Shown: one piece after another, positions 1 through 5,237 of the stretch | How positions within the stretch are numbered: the stretch's first letter is position 1 | Layout: each line of letters starts with the position of its first letter | Source of the DNA: a virus | Taxonomy: Duplodnaviria; Heunggongvirae; Uroviricota; Caudoviricetes | Length of the DNA stretch: 5,237 nucleotides | Strand: one strand, 5' to 3' | IMG/VR virus record: IMGVR_UViG_2778261591_000027 | Span: 1 to 5,237 of that record | Notes under the pieces: generated by a model | Database searches by the model: none | What the model saw: only the letters and a program-made list of their open reading frames with translations | What the model was told of the DNA's origin: nothing | Program-made: the position numbers and the translations under genes

Positions 1-1305
1 CTATGCTTGTTTAATTACATCCGATCCCACAGCGTGGGGCATGGATGGGGCAAACTCACTCAATTTCTGGTTTAAAATGGATACCTGATCCTGATTGTTT
101 TCTGCCATCCACGATCCGTAAACGCGATAAACCATCTGAGCATCAGAGTGTCCCATTTGCTTCGCGATGAAGTTAGGGTTAGCTCCAGCGGTCAAAGACC
201 AACATGCATAAGTGTGCCTGGACTGATATGCTTTGCGGTAGCGAATCCCGGCGCGTCGCATTGCAGTTTCCCATGACTGATTAATCGACCCAACTGCATA
301 ATGGTGCCCGGCAAGGCCATTACGCGTAACGATTTGCGGATTGAAAACAAAAGTGCACGGATGCATTTCAGTTCGACCATACTCACGAAGTTTCACTTCA
401 ACCTGATACTGCTTACCAAGCCGTGTCATTTCAGCCTGATTCTTAAGCACGTCTATTGCAGGTTGAATAAGGTTGATAACACGGTTTGTTCCCGCTTCGG
501 TTTTTGGAAGAGTGAACTCTTTCGTTAATGTGTGGTTTCTTCTGATCGTCATTGTCCCAGCCTTCAGGTCTATATCTTCCCATGCCAGAGAAACCAACTC
601 TCCGTGGCGAACTCCCGTATAAACAGCCAGTGACCACATATTTTTTAATTGCTGATGCTTAAATGCGTTAATCAACCTGACAAATTCATCACGGGTTAAC
701 GGATCAGGTTCCGTTCGTGATCTCTTCAGTTGCGAAATGGCTGCGAACGGATTTTCTTTGATGTATCCGCTGTCGGCTGCGAACTGAAACATCCCCGCCA
801 TGGTGTTCATGTAGTTATTAACAGTTGGCACGGAACGTCCCTTAATGGGTGTTTTTTGCCCACGTTTCAGAACGTGATATCCGGTCAGCAAATCCTTTCG
901 TATGAACAGTAGCTCTTCCTGAGTCACAGCAGATGCAAGTCTGTTGCCTCCGATTCGGGGAACCATATTTCTTACAATGGAGCTGTAACGCCCCATCGCA
1001 TTGGTACTGATTTCCAGCTTTTTCAGATCCAGCCATTTCTCAGCCAGGTCTGCGACGGTAATTTCCTTACTTTCCGCACCAAATTTTCTCAGGTTGGGAG
1101 AGTCCGGAAACTGAGCGGCATAGTCGAAATTACCCGTCTTAATGGAAAAACAAACAGATGCTCGTAGCTCGCCAGCTATTTTCCTGTTTTTTGGTGTATC
1201 CGGCACACCGAGACTTTCCCGCACTCGTGTGCCTTTATACATGAACCATATGCGGAGTGATCCGCCATGGTTCTCAACGCCTGTTGGGTATGCTGTCTTA
1301 GCCAT
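1..1305 (-). CDS. int: Tyrosine-type site-specific integrase, 434 aa, lambda/Rac IntR-like with N-terminal arm-binding domain
   Basis: Complete ORF: ATG at 1303-1305 preceded by AGGAGGG (complement of 1310-1316); TAG stop at 1-3. N-terminus (GSLRIWFMYKGTRVRESLG) resembles arm-type DNA-binding domains of IntR-like integrases, from memory. C-terminus carries tyrosine-recombinase motifs (VRHGEL box I Arg; SRHTYACW; GHSDAQMVYRVY with the likely catalytic Tyr). Confidence 0.9.
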   Translation of the reverse strand: MAKTAYPTGVENHGGSLRIWFMYKGTRVRESLGVPDTPKNRKIAGELRASVCFSIKTGNFDYAAQFPDSPNLRKFGAESKEITVADLAEKWLDLKKLEISTNAMGRYSSIVRNMVPRIGGNRLASAVTQEELLFIRKDLLTGYHVLKRGQKTPIKGRSVPTVNNYMNTMAGMFQFAADSGYIKENPFAAISQLKRSRTEPDPLTRDEFVRLINAFKHQQLKNMWSLAVYTGVRHGELVSLAWEDIDLKAGTMTIRRNHTLTKEFTLPKTEAGTNRVINLIQPAIDVLKNQAEMTRLGKQYQVEVKLREYGRTEMHPCTFVFNPQIVTRNGLAGHHYAVGSINQSWETAMRRAGIRYRKAYQSRHTYACWSLTAGANPNFIAKQMGHSDAQMVYRVYGSWMAENNQDQVSILNQKLSEFAPSMPHAVGSDVIKQA

Positions 1306-1309
1306 TGTT

Positions 1310-1316
1310 CCCTCCT
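1310..1316 (-). promoter_or_regulatory. Shine-Dalgarno sequence (AGGAGGG) for int
   Basis: Plus-strand ccctcct at 1310-1316 is AGGAGGG on the minus strand, 4 nt upstream of the int ATG. Confidence 0.6.
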
Positions 1317-1350
1317 GACGCCCAAGAGCGCATTAAGCATAAACGGTTCT

Positions 1351-1596
1351 TCATCGACGCGCACCAGGCTGTTTTTTTGACATACTCTCAACCCACTGGT
1401 CGATAGCCTTGCGGTTATACATGCATTCGCTGTTTTCTTTTGGAATACCGTCCGGTGCAACATGGAGATATTCACGACCAACAAGCCAGGATTGTTTACG
1501 TGCTCTCTCTATGGTTCCTGGGCGTAAACCTGTAATTTCGATCAGTTTTTGCTCTGTCACCCAGTCGTTGGGCACAATTAAGTTAACTTCGCTCAT
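1351..1596 (-). CDS. xis: Excisionase (putative, small helix-turn-helix-like protein), 81 aa
   Basis: Small ORF immediately upstream of int on the same strand. ATG at 1594-1596 is preceded by GGAG with about 8 nt spacing. The in-frame upstream ATG at 1633-1635 has a poorly spaced ribosome-binding site, so the shorter start is preferred. Residues LIEITGLRPGTIERARK look like a DNA-binding helix-turn-helix, and size and position are typical for prophage Xis. Confidence 0.7.
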   Translation of the reverse strand: MSEVNLIVPNDWVTEQKLIEITGLRPGTIERARKQSWLVGREYLHVAPDGIPKENSECMYNRKAIDQWVESMSKKQPGARR

Positions 1597-1621
1597 TGTT
1601 TTCTCCGGTGCTGGAATGAAA

Positions 1622-1628
1622 GGGGGGG
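1622..1628. repeat. G7/C7 homopolymer tract in the intergenic region upstream of xis
   Basis: Seven consecutive G on the plus strand (C7 on the coding strand), 26 nt upstream of the preferred xis start, within the 73-nt gap between the 114-aa gene stop and xis. Confidence 0.5.
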
Positions 1629-1669
1629 TTAACATGCCTCATTGGGGTTGAGGCTGTGTGATTCCATGG

Positions 1670-2014
1670 TTAGTCCTTGCGTAGTTCGCTAATTCTTCTG
1701 TAAGTCTCTGGTGCTTTGTTCCCGTACGTCTTCATTTCAGACTTCAACAGAGCAACGAGTGAATCCCATTCGTTGAGGATTCCTTTGAATGCCGGAACGC
1801 GCTTTGCAACCTTGTCGAATGAATCCCTGATTTCTGGAATCTGCTCAACAAGTGCAACGCATCGCCGAAAGTCTGCTGCGTCATGGGGAGCGCCGAAGTG
1901 ATGACCATAGATATTCTTTTTCAGGCCACATGCGATTGAGGCAAGAGTTGCGCTACTGATGCCGACATCGCCAGTCGATTGCCATTTCAAAACCTTCATA
2001 GCCAAATCTGACAT
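1670..2014 (-). CDS. Hypothetical protein, 114 aa, function unknown
   Basis: ORF with ATG at 2012-2014 preceded by GGAGA (complement of 2022-2026) at 6-7 nt spacing; TAA stop at 1670-1672. No motif recognised by eye. Confidence 0.65.
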   Translation of the reverse strand: MSDLAMKVLKWQSTGDVGISSATLASIACGLKKNIYGHHFGAPHDAADFRRCVALVEQIPEIRDSFDKVAKRVPAFKGILNEWDSLVALLKSEMKTYGNKAPETYRRISELRKD

Positions 2015-2026
2015 TTCTTGTCTCCA

Positions 2027-2051
2027 TAAAACAAAACCCGCCGTAGCGAGT
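2027..2051 (-). terminator. Possible weak intrinsic terminator or attenuator hairpin between the ASCH gene and the 114-aa gene
   Basis: Minus-strand RNA 5'-CUCGC-UACG-GCGGG-UUUUGUUUU-3': a 5-bp stem (4 Watson-Crick pairs plus one G-U) closed by a UNCG-type tetraloop, followed directly by a U-rich tract. The stem is short and the U tract runs into the downstream ribosome-binding site, so this is tentative. Confidence 0.25.
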
Positions 2052-2086
2052 TCAGATAAAAGAAATCCCCGCGAGTTCGAGGATTG

Positions 2087-2371
2087 TTATTCATTGCCGA
2101 TATTCACCTTTATCGCGAACACCTTTACCGGTTTATCGCCGAAGTGCGGATGTGTGATTGTCTTGATTTCATATCCGTCATACGGAACATCAATTCTACG
2201 GCTGGAATCGTCGCGCTTCGGATATCCCTTTGTGATAATCAGGCGGTCATATTCCCGGAACATGATTCGCTTATTCCAGTAGCCATTACACAGGCGATAC
2301 TCTTCCGTTTTCTCTCCGCGAATCATGGCATCGAAAAATTCACCTTTAACGGCAAGTTGCAGGTTAGCCAC
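2087..2371 (-). CDS. ASCH (ASC-1 homology, PUA-like) domain protein, 94 aa
   Basis: GTG start at 2369-2371 preceded by a perfect AGGAGG (complement of 2378-2383) at 6 nt spacing; stop at 2087-2089. Contains RGEKTEEYR, matching the ASCH signature GxKxxExR, within a roughly 90-aa beta-rich small protein. Confidence 0.75.
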   Translation of the reverse strand: MANLQLAVKGEFFDAMIRGEKTEEYRLCNGYWNKRIMFREYDRLIITKGYPKRDDSSRRIDVPYDGYEIKTITHPHFGDKPVKVFAIKVNIGNE

Positions 2372-3038
2372 GGTTAACCTCCTGCGGCGGTTCTGGTAGA
2401 GGCATCCAGAACAAGGCGTTCCCTAACCACGATAAAGTGCCGTCGCTCAACTCCACGTATTCCCCTTGTACCTGTCCTGCCATATACTCGCCGTGCTTTG
2501 AATAAATTAAAATCCAATCATCTTGAGGGGGCATTCGCTCACTACAGCTTATCCAACCATCCGGAGTTACCGGAGAGTTGCCTGCCAGTCTACGCAAAAC
2601 AGCCTTAACAGCCTCAATACGGTCATCATCGCAATTTTCCAGCGTATCTATGCGGTCGAGCATGATGATGGCGTTATCAATATCAGGATTGCCGGTCCAC
2701 TCATTACCGCGATTGGATTCGGCAGCCTGGTTGCGCATAATCTCAGGCGTAAGCTCTTTGTAAGCATAAGCAAGAGGCTCTGATGCATTATCCGGCACAA
2801 CCGACGCAGGCGCGGCAGCATAAACAGGAATAACGTCCGCTTGCTCTTTATTGCTTTCATCCGTTAAAGCCCAGAATAATTTCCCGGCAGGATGTTTGAA
2901 AATATAAGCAACTGGATCTGCTTCCAGCGATGCCAGTGCAATTTCATAAGCCCGGCGTTCAATATTGTCTCGAACGTCCAGGCTGCTGATACGCTCTTTG
3001 ATTTCTTTAATCAGTTCTTTGTCGGTGAAAGTGGTCAT
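2364..3038 (-). CDS. Phage protein with C-terminal DUF551-like domain, 224 aa, acidic N-terminal region
   Basis: ATG at 3036-3038 preceded by AAGGAGAG (complement of 3043-3050); TAA at 2364-2366 overlaps the ASCH start by 8 nt. The C-terminal segment WISCSERMPPQDDWILIY...LFWMPLPEPP resembles the DUF551 family common in enterobacterial prophage early regions, from memory. Confidence 0.75.
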   Translation of the reverse strand: MTTFTDKELIKEIKERISSLDVRDNIERRAYEIALASLEADPVAYIFKHPAGKLFWALTDESNKEQADVIPVYAAAPASVVPDNASEPLAYAYKELTPEIMRNQAAESNRGNEWTGNPDIDNAIIMLDRIDTLENCDDDRIEAVKAVLRRLAGNSPVTPDGWISCSERMPPQDDWILIYSKHGEYMAGQVQGEYVELSDGTLSWLGNALFWMPLPEPPQEVNRG

Positions 3039-3039
3039 A

Positions 3040-3231
3040 TCACTCTCCTTTAGTGCGAAAGTGGTTTTTCCAGCGGTTTTGTGCTGCGCTTCTGTTTCGC
3101 CAGACACCGTAAAAACGAATAGAGGAACACCCCCTAAAACCCAGATATCTATAGTAAATAACAAGCCGATTTGAGATACGGATACGCTGCCCGGGCTTTG
3201 CTATCAGCATCTTTGCCTTACGATTTTTCAT
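3040..3231 (-). CDS. Small, very basic hypothetical protein, 63 aa (N-terminus MKNRKAK)
   Basis: ATG at 3229-3231 overlaps the TGA of the preceding small ORF (ATGA). Its own TGA at 3040-3042 lies 1 nt before the DUF551 ATG. The 3' end overlaps the DUF551 ribosome-binding site. Composition is extremely Arg/Lys-rich, so coding status is uncertain. Confidence 0.35.
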   Translation of the reverse strand: MKNRKAKMLIAKPGQRIRISNRLVIYYRYLGFRGCSSIRFYGVWRNRSAAQNRWKNHFRTKGE

Positions 3232-3233
3232 CG
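3211..3233. repeat. Copy B of a 23-bp imperfect direct repeat (20 of 23 identical) covering the start of the 63-aa ORF
   Basis: Plus-strand ctttgccttacgatttttcatcg versus ttttgctttacggtttttcatcg at 3384-3406. On the coding strand both read ATGAAAAAYCGTAARGCAAAR. Confidence 0.7.
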
Positions 3234-3404
3234 CACTGCGTACCCCTTCTCTCGTCTGTTCCGCGACGCGGTGGGTTTATAGTTAAATGCGAATACCACC
3301 CTACCATACATGCCGATCACCGCCCGTTTGTGATTGCTGATTGGTAGCTTCTCGTACCCCGTCGAACGCGATAAAAGAAGTAATTTTGCTTTACGGTTTT
3401 TCAT
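3228..3404 (-). CDS. Small basic hypothetical protein, 58 aa (N-terminus MKNRKAK)
   Basis: ATG at 3402-3404 preceded by GGGAGA (complement of 3413-3418) at 8 nt spacing. The start lies inside the last codons of the upstream 292-aa gene (14-nt overlap); TGA at 3228-3230. Confidence 0.4.
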   Translation of the reverse strand: MKNRKAKLLLLSRSTGYEKLPISNHKRAVIGMYGRVVFAFNYKPTASRNRREKGYAVR

Positions 3405-3406
3405 CG
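3384..3406. repeat. Copy A of the 23-bp imperfect direct repeat covering the start of the 58-aa ORF
   Basis: See copy B. The two copies are 173 bp apart and flanking sequence is unrelated. Confidence 0.7.
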
Positions 3407-4269
3407 TTTTGTTCTCCCGCGTCTCCTTTGATGCGAATGCCTGCGGCGCGCGGCACATTAACTTCCACGATGCGCACTGTTGGTTTGTACATCTCAATCG
3501 CTGTCAGCCAGTCAGCTCCTGTCATGCGCTTTTCCGCATCGCCATTAGTCCACTGAACCGGTACACCAATAGCCTTCATCGCGATTTCTATTTCCCCGGC
3601 GATGGCGCTTTTTCCGCAACCAGTAAAACCAGAAACAACGACAAGAACTTCACCTTTGGCTGGTTTTATTTCCCGTGCTTCCAGTTCTGCTATGCGCTTT
3701 TCTGATGCTTCAAGTAACGCCTGCTTATCGCGTAGCGCTTCTTCCAGTTCAGCAACATGGCATTCACTATCAATGAGGTTATTCTCTGCGGCTTCAAGCT
3801 TCTCGCGCATATCGTCAACGTACTCGACCAGAGAACCGCCAGCAGGAATTTCGCACTCCTCGACCAGTTGGAAGTAGATATCAGCTGCGGCCCGTGTGTT
3901 GCTATGCCTAGCGTCGCCCATCTCACCTTCACGAAGAGCATCGCGTTCGGCGGTAAGATTGGCTATCTTGCTGTCTTTGCCTTCCAGTTCAACGCGCAGC
4001 TTCCCTACCGTTAGCGCAATATCCTCGTTCTCCTGGTCGCGGGATTTGATGTATTGCTGGTTCCTTTCCCGTTCATCCAGCAGCGCCAGCACGGTTTCTG
4101 GTCCGGTCAGAAATTTGAAGGCGTTGAGCGCATCAATATCCACACCGTAATCTTTAAGTTCCTGTTCACTTAACAAATCATCATCAGCTGGCAACATTAA
4201 CAGGCGTTCCATTGCTGGAATTGCACGTTCCGCCGCCTCACGCAGTGCCTGGTAATTAATTTCGCTCAC
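3391..4269 (-). CDS. Coiled-coil phage protein, 292 aa, possibly ead/Ea22-like, with a C-terminal Walker A-like motif
   Basis: GTG start at 4267-4269 preceded by AAGGAGG (complement of 4276-4282) at 6 nt spacing and overlapping the upstream TGA (GTGA); TAA at 3391-3393. The N-terminal two thirds are heptad-like and E/R/L/A-rich. The motif GFTGCGKS (GxxGxGKS) follows a hydrophobic strand (EVLVVVS) at nt 3607-3630. The Ea22-like assignment is from memory and tentative. Confidence 0.7.
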   Translation of the reverse strand: MSEINYQALREAAERAIPAMERLLMLPADDDLLSEQELKDYGVDIDALNAFKFLTGPETVLALLDERERNQQYIKSRDQENEDIALTVGKLRVELEGKDSKIANLTAERDALREGEMGDARHSNTRAAADIYFQLVEECEIPAGGSLVEYVDDMREKLEAAENNLIDSECHVAELEEALRDKQALLEASEKRIAELEAREIKPAKGEVLVVVSGFTGCGKSAIAGEIEIAMKAIGVPVQWTNGDAEKRMTGADWLTAIEMYKPTVRIVEVNVPRAAGIRIKGDAGEQNDEKP

Positions 4270-4772
4270 TGGTTGCCTCCTTTGCGAAGCTGTTCCGCAC
4301 AATGCAGCAGGGCGTCCGTCGCTTCTTTCACCGTAACGATGTCGCCATCGTCCAGCCCGGCAACCGTCGCGTCCTTAACGAACACCGAGCAAAGGTCATT
4401 AAACGCCTGCGCCCGCACTTCAGCCAGGAAAGCGTCGGTGGCTGGGGTTTCGCTATGGTGTAGGGCATCGTTGATAATCATTGCAGCAACACCAGCCTGC
4501 CCTGCATCCGTGACCGACACATGCTCAAGAGTTACGGCCATTGCGTGTTTCAGCCCCGCATTCTCAGCGGCCAGCGCAGCGCACTTGGCTTCAATGTTGT
4601 CAATCGTGAGCCCGGCAGAACGACACTCACGCAACGACGTTTCAATTTTTGATTCAAGTTCACCGAACTTACGCACCAGATATTCAGCGTTTGTTTCGTT
4701 AACCTTTAAATCTCGTGGGAAGCATTTACCTTTCAGAAAACCATCCATCTCAATTAGTGACATTTGTTTCAT
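4266..4772 (-). CDS. Hypothetical protein, 168 aa (174 aa if the in-frame GTG at 4788-4790 is used)
   Basis: ATG at 4770-4772 overlaps the TGA of the upstream 54-aa ORF (ATGA) and has GGAG about 9 nt upstream. The stop at 4266-4268 overlaps the GTG start of the 292-aa gene. Alanine-rich with amphipathic segments; no motif recognised. Confidence 0.65.
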
Positions 4773-4933
4773 TTCTTCCCACTCCGCCACATCGCATTCA
4801 GATATTTGTTTTGATTTACTGATGGAAAAGAATTTCTCTTAAGCAATTCCTCTCTCGATGGCATTGGCTTTACGCGTTGGCGAATAATCATTTCTGCCGG
4901 AAGAATGCCGGGATTGTATGCAAGTCCTCTCAT
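4769..4933 (-). CDS. Small hypothetical protein, 54 aa
   Basis: ATG at 4931-4933 preceded by GAGG (complement of 4942-4945), which sits just after the upstream TGA; the stop overlaps the next start. The longer six-frame ORF (to 5083) has no ribosome-binding site and overlaps the 97-aa gene, so it is rejected. Confidence 0.45.
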
Positions 4934-4943
4934 GGTAAATTCC

Positions 4944-5237
4944 TCAGTCATTACTGATAGCGCCATAGCGTGAGCGGTAATTACGCAGGCGCGGGTCAAT
5001 TTCAGGGAAGTGGGTATATGTGGCTTTGCGGAATGGTCGGATTGATGTCTGGTAAATTCGCTCGCGTTCTTCTTTCTCTGCAAGCCATATGCAATGGCGA
5101 AATTCCTTTTCCTCTTTCGTTTCCTGCGGTAGCGACATTATCAGGTCGTAGTTTTTTCTGAATTTATCCAGCACCTCCGATACGGAATTGCCGGAACAGC
5201 GGCGCACGTCATCCGCACCATACAAAGGCGCTGGCAT
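4944..5237 (-). CDS. Hypothetical protein, 97 aa, with the start codon at the window edge
   Basis: ORF begins with ATG at 5235-5237, the last three bases of the window, and ends with TGA at 4944-4946. Upstream signals cannot be assessed, and the true start could lie further upstream outside the window. Confidence 0.55.

Follow-up and report, generated by a model that had tools for sequence, protein, structure and literature searches.

The window analyzed here is a stretch of 5,237 nucleotides (nt) of viral DNA (Caudoviricetes; IMG/VR record IMGVR_UViG_2778261591_000027, positions 1 to 5,237), and it contains two consecutive small open reading frames (ORFs), ORF1 and ORF2, between an ead/Ea22-like coiled-coil gene and a DUF551 gene. 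Every gene of the window lies on the minus strand, and the two ORFs were read accordingly. The ORFs and the elements at their starts, with member types and bodies named as in the related loci described below, were as follows:

3404..3228, minus strand: ORF1, 58 amino acids (aa), MKNRKAKLLLLSRSTGYEKLPISNHKRAVIGMYGRVVFAFNYKPTASRNRREKGYAVR; internal-type member with an SNHK body and a tail ending ...REKGYAVR before the stop
3231..3040, minus strand: ORF2, 63 aa, MKNRKAKMLIAKPGQRIRISNRLVIYYRYLGFRGCSSIRFYGVWRNRSAAQNRWKNHFRTKGE; terminal-type member with an AKPGQ body and a tail ending ...SAAQNRWKNHFRTKGE before the stop
3404..3384, minus strand: start block 1, ATGAAAAACCGTAAAGCAAAA, 21 nt, encoding MKNRKAK, with TGA and TAA in its two other frames
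3231..3211, minus strand: start block 2, ATGAAAAATCGTAAGGCAAAG, 21 nt, whose ATG overlaps the TGA of ORF1 (ATGA)
3405..3421, minus strand: cassette leader, with a Shine-Dalgarno-like GGGAGA 8 nt ahead of the ORF1 ATG

Both ORFs begin with the N-terminus ATGAAAAAYCGTAARGCAAAR. The two start blocks differ at three positions, every one of them synonymous and at the third position of a codon; by hand counting of sites, with no tool, we estimated the chance of three random differences among the 18 non-ATG positions all being of this kind at about 1e-3. The degenerate 21-mer start pattern occurred exactly twice in the window and not at all in 200 shuffles, and a direct-repeat search of the window returned a 22-nt repeat over both starts. 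The spacing of this repeat is 173 nt, which places the two ORFs in different frames. The first 14 nt of ORF1 are at the same time the last 14 of the ead/Ea22-like gene, which ends at the TAA in the CGTAA of start block 1. The junction of ORF1 with ORF2 is a 4-nt ATGA stop/start overlap, and the TGA of ORF2 is followed, after 1 nt, by the DUF551 ATG at 3038. Ahead of ORF2 a Shine-Dalgarno-like GAAGGGG stands 11 nt from the ATG, a long spacing, and ORF2 may therefore depend on re-initiation. Both products are extremely basic, with isoelectric points of 11.4 (ORF1) and 11.8 (ORF2) and net charges of about +13 and +16. A preliminary description of this locus had reported two tandem frames of 58 and 63 codons, a shared seven-codon start with three synonymous third-position changes, different frames, a well-spaced GGGAGA with the ORF1 start inside the upstream gene, the ATGA junction and 1-nt gap, and strong basicity, and all of these were borne out.

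Very probably, ORF1 and ORF2 are real, jointly transcribed paralogues from a narrow gene family with very basic products of about 60 residues, found in enterobacterial phages, and they form a cassette in a prophage early operon. Comparisons were made with about 90 related loci, drawn from annotated phages and IMG/VR, that contain 129 family genes. A full-length frame is kept by about 126 of the 129, at protein identities to the window proteins that go down to about 50%, and the most variable alignment columns are at codon position 3; open frames and changes concentrated at third positions are what the preliminary description had proposed to look for in homologous loci. Interrupted frames beside a conserved repeat, which it held would point to a non-coding element, were confined to a small minority (truncation or extension in about 3 of 129 genes, besides a few frameshifted entries). 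The median ratio of nonsynonymous to synonymous substitution rates (dN/dS, Nei-Gojobori) was 0.07 among internal-type and 0.37 among terminal-type genes, values that are indicative and not a formal test because the pairs are not phylogenetically independent. In addition, the first 27 nt of the genes occurred as 23 distinct nucleotide variants whose differences were almost entirely synonymous, with synonymous variation of the start block seen across about 74 distinct genes. In-frame indels of one and two codons were present among database variants, and both frames were intact in four of four near-identical E. coli loci inspected. Rfam 15 covariance models run on both strands of the whole window gave no match at E <= 1, the RNA folding energy of the region was not unusual (z = -1.6), and no internal promoter was found in a search of the region. 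Judged from sequence comparison, these data show that ORF1 and ORF2 are under purifying selection, and the earlier proposal of two genuine micro-proteins with a conserved translated start is supported by frames that stay open, indels that keep the frame, dN/dS well below 1 and synonymous variation at the start.

Several observations weigh against this interpretation. Neither ORF is annotated by the Prokaryotic Genome Annotation Pipeline (PGAP) in the identical E. coli UTAK-1 locus or in four other RefSeq loci with intact frames. PGAP does annotate a homologue of ORF2 (91% nucleotide identity) as a coding sequence (CDS) in a Mu-like prophage, and one or both genes have been annotated by other pipelines and by phage annotators. 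Frameshifted or extended variants exist in the databases (P0016, P0065, P0080, P0085, P0088, L017, L020 and L073), and selection is therefore not absolute. A search for direct evidence of translation of these genes or their homologues, by ribosome profiling or proteomics, found none. To these may be added the non-independence of the dN/dS pairs and the moderate confidence of the structure model described below.

Some of the database variants trace to a run of five G in ORF2 (window 3130-3134, GGGGG on the minus strand), for which length variants were seen in public data. With one additional G (P0016), the product is a 60-aa protein with an unrelated tail. With one G fewer (P0065), the N-terminal half of ORF2 is fused to the DUF551 protein, giving 222 aa, a fusion permitted by the DUF551 frame, which stays open upstream to 3164. 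These variants could be sequencing errors, decay or slippage. A different annotation problem was noted for the terminal-type gene, which is widely annotated as a 90-aa 'prophage protein' (PhiV10p51, L003 1920-2192; cluster P0043, 231 contigs) from a start 27 codons too early. The 27-codon extension is the 3' half of the preceding family gene read in another frame, and the conserved start is the MKNRKAK ATG.

Profile searches placed both ORFs in PHROG 1380. ORF1 matched with E = 3.1e-23 (residues 1-58 on positions 1-60 of the 62-position profile) and ORF2 with E = 5.5e-13 (residues 1-63 on positions 1-62 of 62). When the first 10 residues were removed the matches persisted, with E = 2.3e-14 for ORF1 and 4.5e-8 for ORF2. 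Pairwise BLASTP of ORF1 against ORF2 aligned residues 1-10 only; the family alignment showed that the two share L9, an I-S-N motif, G31 and A-x-x-N-R with R-x-K-G. The preliminary description had considered the sequences unrelated after codon 7, a claim that the full-length profile matches, kept without residues 1-10, do not uphold. The PHROG 1380 alignments are characterized by M[KN]NRKA[KR]-x-L, [IV]-S-N-[RH], a conserved Gly and [ST]-A-[AS]-[QR]-N-R, the last of which leads into either WKNH..RTKGE or R[EK]KGYAVR. All of the signature motifs are present in both ORFs; ORF2 also has the WKNH, in place of which ORF1 has the GYAVR tail. Both ORFs also agree with the family in length (about 55-66 aa) and in their phage early accessory context, comparable neighbours (ead/Ea22-like, DUF551 and/or ASCH genes) being found in phiV10, D6, RCS47 and TL-2011b. 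One entry, P0007, is a natural hybrid that has the body of ORF1 and the tail of ORF2. The N-terminus of distant members varies conservatively (MNNRKA, MRNRKV, MKNRKAR), and MKNRKAK is therefore a family signature motif at the protein level. On this profile evidence ORF1 and ORF2 are paralogues of one catalogued family, PHROG 1380, of unknown function, and their common start, which had been taken as an isolated module on two unrelated proteins, is the signature N-terminus of that family.

The family has a narrow distribution. A profile search of 1.84 billion representative proteins returned only 48 clusters at E <= 1e-3, and among species-representative genomes there was one match only, in Citrobacter braakii; these results indicate a narrow enterobacterial phage and prophage family that is mostly strain-specific prophage cargo. 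Catalogued members include phiV10 gp50/gp51, VT2-Sa p08, D6 orf101 and Sasha gp78, and all named members are recorded as 'hypothetical protein' or 'prophage protein'. Homologues of ORF1 in phages have 50-98% identity, and a homologue of ORF2 is present in 137 phage records. A full-text literature search with peptide motifs and 'phrog_1380' found nothing on the family.

Across the related loci the genes form short arrays, with a pair in about 40, a triple in one and single genes otherwise. Consecutive members are joined by a 4-nt ATGA overlap in 40 of 40 junctions. The pair layout recurs in phiV10 (gp50 and the core of gp51), the P1-like RCS47, TL-2011b, a Shiga toxin (Stx) 2c phage and HEMP4; single terminal-type genes are found in D6, Sasha and a Mu-like prophage. 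The tail type tracks position exactly, in that members with a successor end ...GYAVR and last members end ...NRWKNH[LF]RTKGE, each directly before the stop, and the RRN..VW.W body carries either tail according to its position. The bodies reassort (SNHK with AKPGQ, SRVYR or RRN; RRN with SRVYR) in a fixed order. The triple array, on IMG/VR contig L037 (1149-1692), reads SNHK/GYAVR, RRN/GYAVR and SRVYR/NRWKNH with ATGA at all junctions, and it indicates that an array can grow by the addition of internal-type units.

The array ends are conserved as well. A leader of about 20 nt, acgcaggagaRcaaaRcg, which contains the Shine-Dalgarno site, is kept upstream of first members whatever the upstream gene or its frame. 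The long upstream ORF ends at the TGA of the ATGA in 42 of 89 loci and in the other frame in 27 of 89, mostly at the TAA of CGTAA, as ead does in the window. At the other end, the terminal tail ...AAAGGAGAGTGA-T-ATG gives a well-spaced AAGGAG to whichever gene comes next. In many related loci an extra gp49-like ORF of about 58 aa (...KRRRAKR, ending on the ATGA of the first member) lies between ead and the array; copies are at 1649-1825 in L003 (phiV10 gp49), at 157-333 in L092 and L093, and in an unannotated gap at 1828-2001 in L007 and L008. The window is without this ORF, and its ead tail joins the cassette leader directly, AAAGGAGA being followed by CGCGGGAGA. This joint resembles the product of a deletion between AAAGGAG-like and AAAGAAACGCAGGAG-like sequences.

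A second repeat defines the outer limits of the pair. This 16-nt direct repeat, TTCGCAYYAAAGGAGA, occurs in two copies with a spacing of 378 nt:

3437..3422, minus strand: linker repeat copy 1, TTCGCATCAAAGGAGA, at the ead end and encoding IRIKG; identified from the repeat search and the empty-site loci L095 and L096
3059..3044, minus strand: linker repeat copy 2, TTCGCACTAAAGGAGA, at the end of ORF2 and encoding FRTKGE; contains the AAGGAG Shine-Dalgarno sequence 6 nt before the DUF551 ATG
3044..3421, minus strand: two-gene cassette of 378 base pairs (bp) made up of the leader, ORF1 and ORF2; its boundary is ambiguous inside the 16-nt repeat

E. coli B-766 and TUM9803 have empty sites, in which ead ends ...IRIKGE and a stop, with 1 base separating it from the same DUF551 start that the window has. 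Based on the linker repeats and these empty sites, the leader, ORF1 and ORF2 constitute a 378-bp insertion/deletion polymorphism. The final six residues of ORF2 and those of the B-766 and TUM9803 ead proteins are one junction module read in the same frame. Most of this pair is carried by only 20 of 5426 complete E. coli genomes; about a thousand further records match parts of the query only, mostly its linker-plus-DUF551 end. Together, these comparisons demonstrate the paralogy, the array architecture, the positional tail rule and the linker-flanked indel, and the conserved junction modules mark mosaic joints. The preliminary description had suggested that the start block marks such joints. 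Modules at cassette ends and member junctions are indeed conserved, with bodies that reassort between them; the demonstrable indel joint lies at the 16-nt linker repeat, not at the 23-bp start repeat.

In the explanation that we favor, the pair belongs to the early accessory genes of a lambdoid prophage, in a leftward operon where the ead/Ea22-like and DUF551 genes flank it. MKNRKAK is the family's most conserved protein motif, held by purifying selection on amino acids, which would account for the start copies having only synonymous differences. The ends of the genes would also serve as portable junction modules. The leader, together with the start block, carries a Shine-Dalgarno site and stops in both other frames, so that an upstream gene in either frame ends there; members are linked by ATGA, and the terminal ...RTKGE tail and its stop encode the AAGGAG for the next gene. 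Given what is established for overlapping stop and start codons, this layout should couple translation along the array. The short conserved DNA at the junctions would provide the sites of cassette gain, loss and reshuffling.

Other explanations were weighed against this one. The region might be non-coding, the ORFs being accidental and the 23-bp repeat an element that acts in regulation, as RNA or in recombination, as the missing PGAP genes in RefSeq genomes and the few frameshifted homologous entries could suggest. We consider this highly improbable: the full-length frames persist down to 50% protein identity in nearly all family genes, dN/dS is well below 1 with indels in frame, the proteins form a full-length profile-defined family, and neither the Rfam search nor the folding energy pointed to a structured RNA. 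A less drastic alternative is that the start block is conserved mainly at the nucleotide level, as a portable initiation or coupling signal and short-homology crossover site. Consistent with this, ATGAAAAACCGT is nearly invariant even at synonymous sites (among the 23 distinct start variants of 27 nt, AAT replaces AAC in 2 and CGC replaces CGT in 4), the T of CGT is required for the TAA that ends upstream genes in 27 of 89 loci, just as ATGA ends them in 42 of 89, bodies reassort between conserved blocks and hybrid proteins exist, and the leader of about 20 nt is kept though upstream genes read it in different frames. However, distant members alter the DNA yet keep similar residues (MNNRKA, MRNRKV, MKNRKAR), third positions of codons 5-7 vary freely, the demonstrable indel joint in the window is at another repeat, and no crossover inside the start block was directly mapped. 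We therefore regard conservation mainly of the nucleotides as unlikely, though a signal of this kind could contribute alongside selection on the protein.

The remaining alternatives accept that the genes are intact. An obligate partnership of the internal- and terminal-type proteins, for example as a heterodimer, would explain the ordered pair, since the order is fixed (the SNHK body always first, SRVYR or AKPGQ last) and pairs occur in at least six phage backgrounds. This idea is improbable in view of the loci, about half of the total, in which a terminal-type gene has no partner gene (as in D6, Sasha and the Mu-like prophage), the free reassortment (b1 with b2a, b3 or b4; b4 with b3), and a type-defining tail that tracks position and not body lineage. 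The genes might also be functionless passengers, decaying prophage cargo without a role for phage or host. The frameshifted and extended variants, including the G5-run length variation in ORF2, speak for this, as does the dispensability of the cassette, which is missing from many related prophages; purifying selection across phage types that include virulent and plasmid phages (Sasha, D6, RCS47) and the retention of motifs at 35-50% identity make this quite improbable.

A structure was predicted for the family with AlphaFold2 from a 40-sequence alignment, which replaced an earlier run on 19 sequences (predicted local distance difference test score, pLDDT, of 65). The model has a pLDDT of 74 and a predicted template modelling (pTM) score of 0.46, and consists of a predicted helix at 4-10, strands at 16-18, 23-29 and 39-45, and a helix at 49-62. 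No significant structural neighbours of the model were found, the weak ones, all with scores below significance, being AP2, an integrase arm-binding domain and CedA. A sequence search of the PDB with the family profile gave no match at E <= 10. Scans of both ORFs with Pfam, NCBIfam and PADLOC, and of 40 members with Pfam, returned nothing curated, PADLOC having no family at E <= 0.1.

Three candidate relationships were rejected and a fourth was kept as an analogy. A Pfam match of NdhS to KPGQRIRISN was at chance level. CsrA/RsmA was considered because LLLSRSTGY in ORF1 looks like LILTRRVGE in CsrA, and CsrA provided the top Foldseek matches in the PDB, but these had E of about 1 and a template modelling score of 0.38, the hhalign probability was 0.15%, and there was no Pfam CsrA match. 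For lambda Orf60a (DUF1317), which belongs to PHROG 1998, the hhalign probability was 0.1%. A double-stranded RNA-binding domain or HicA-like reading (alpha-beta-beta-beta-alpha) had been suggested by conserved patches that map, in the predicted structure, to helix 1, to the turn between beta1 and beta2 and to the beginning of helix 2; no structural match backs it, and it serves as an analogy only.

Conservation in the family falls on polar or basic residues (N, R, K, S, Q, W, H), which form patches on the N-terminal helix, at the first turn and where the C-terminal helix begins. Based on these patches, the charge and size of the proteins and their early-operon context, we tentatively put forward nucleic-acid binding as the most likely activity, with the proteins acting as non-essential early accessory factors. 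More speculatively, and in our view quite unlikely as a whole, the family could represent a new mini nucleic-acid-binding fold, deployed in ordered arrays of one to three paralogues (SNHK, then RRN, then SRVYR/AKPGQ) that act together, early in infection, on DNA or RNA of the host or the phage, with gene termini that evolved as portable coupling linkers and that, through short-homology recombination, actively bring about the gain and loss of cassettes and the shuffling of bodies. If this were true, the arrays would offer a compact natural system in which to test the linker model of phage mosaicism.

The genes around the cassette were assigned as follows, the last five lying downstream of it:

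3391..4269, minus strand: ead/Ea22-like coiled-coil gene, Pfam Ead_Ea22 E = 9e-31; coordinates from PGAP at the identical E. coli UTAK-1 locus
2364..3038, minus strand: DUF551 gene, 224 aa, Pfam DUF551 E = 6.6e-10
2087-2371, minus strand: ASCH-domain gene
1670-2014, minus strand: gene for a 114-aa hypothetical protein
1351-1635 (or from a shorter start), minus strand: excisionase gene
1-1305, minus strand: tyrosine integrase gene

The window is the left end of a lambdoid or P22-like prophage; in the identical UTAK-1 locus, genes for Erf, an anti-RecBCD (Abc-like) protein and a DUF2737 protein lie farther upstream. The last 11 codons of ead (...DAGEQNDEKP and the stop) run through the cassette leader and the ORF1 start block. 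The C-terminal part of the ead product (residues about 213-256 of the 303-aa listed ORF) has a Walker-A-like motif, VVVSGFTGCGKSAIAG; weak matches were to Pfam APS_kinase, AAA_16 and AAA_18 (E 0.05-0.12) and, in PADLOC, to the LmuB coiled coil. At the UTAK-1 locus PGAP splits the intact DUF551 ORF into a pseudogene, described as 'partial, missing C-terminus', and a shorter internal CDS (L001 3423-3548 and 3723-4097), which is probably an artefact of a mosaic protein architecture.

These findings expose an annotation gap, in that conserved, selected small genes are missed by PGAP in every checked RefSeq E. coli genome with this pair, so that about 350 bp looks intergenic there. The family adds a further uncharacterised, very basic small protein to the early accessory region of lambdoid, Stx, P1-like and Mu-like phages. 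The use of first and last codons as shared junction modules bears on how phage mosaics form at gene boundaries. The results are useful as an annotation correction and as an example of junction-module mosaicism, and would be unsurprising to a phage genomicist.

ATGA stop/start overlaps are a feature of translationally coupled genes in many operons and phage gene clusters. The window resembles such arrays in its 14-nt overlap (ead/ORF1), its ATGA (ORF1/ORF2) and its 1-nt gap (ORF2/DUF551), with Shine-Dalgarno sites in the preceding codons, a likeness known here from sequence. Conserved gene-boundary, or 'linker', sequences are reportedly a feature of lambdoid mosaicism in the modular theory of Susskind and Botstein and in the later HK97, HK022 and HK620 genome comparisons. 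As in that mosaicism, joints in the window are at gene boundaries and at short conserved junctions, here the 16-nt repeat around the 378-bp indel, with reassorting bodies. Unlike those linkers, the junction modules of the window sit within coding sequence, where they encode the C-terminal 5-8 residues of one protein and the N-terminal 7 of the protein after it, and the type of tail is set by position in the array.

The small exo-xis proteins of lambda and Stx phages (Orf60a, Orf61, Orf63, Orf73, Ea22) are similar to the window pair in their size of about 60 residues and in their location in a leftward early operon that runs from recombination genes to xis/int, around ea22. Orf60a has been predicted to be a small beta-sheet-plus-helix DNA-binding domain, and small early proteins of the exo-xis accessory region are reported to influence the lysis-lysogeny decision (PMC8614690). 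The weak neighbours of the window model, whose scores were below significance, are the fold group cited for Orf60a (PMC8614690). However, the PHROG 1380 proteins have no sequence relationship to Orf60a, and their genes lie downstream of ea22, not upstream.

The phiV10 gp50/gp51 group (PhiV10p50/p51, VT2-Sa p08, D6 orf101, Sasha gp78) agrees with the window pair in family, in size and in the motifs MKNRKAK, ISN[RH] and SAAQNR(WKNH). As in the window, phiV10 has an internal-type and a terminal-type gene in tandem, with the ATGA overlap, downstream of an ead/Ea22-like gene, and its annotators had already noted that p50 and p51 resemble one another. The bodies differ, being SNHK and AKPGQ in the window and RRN and SRVYR in phiV10, and the gp49-like ORF between ead and the array is found in phiV10 but not in the window. 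The gene family is thus already known and catalogued, and what is new here is a further pair of members.

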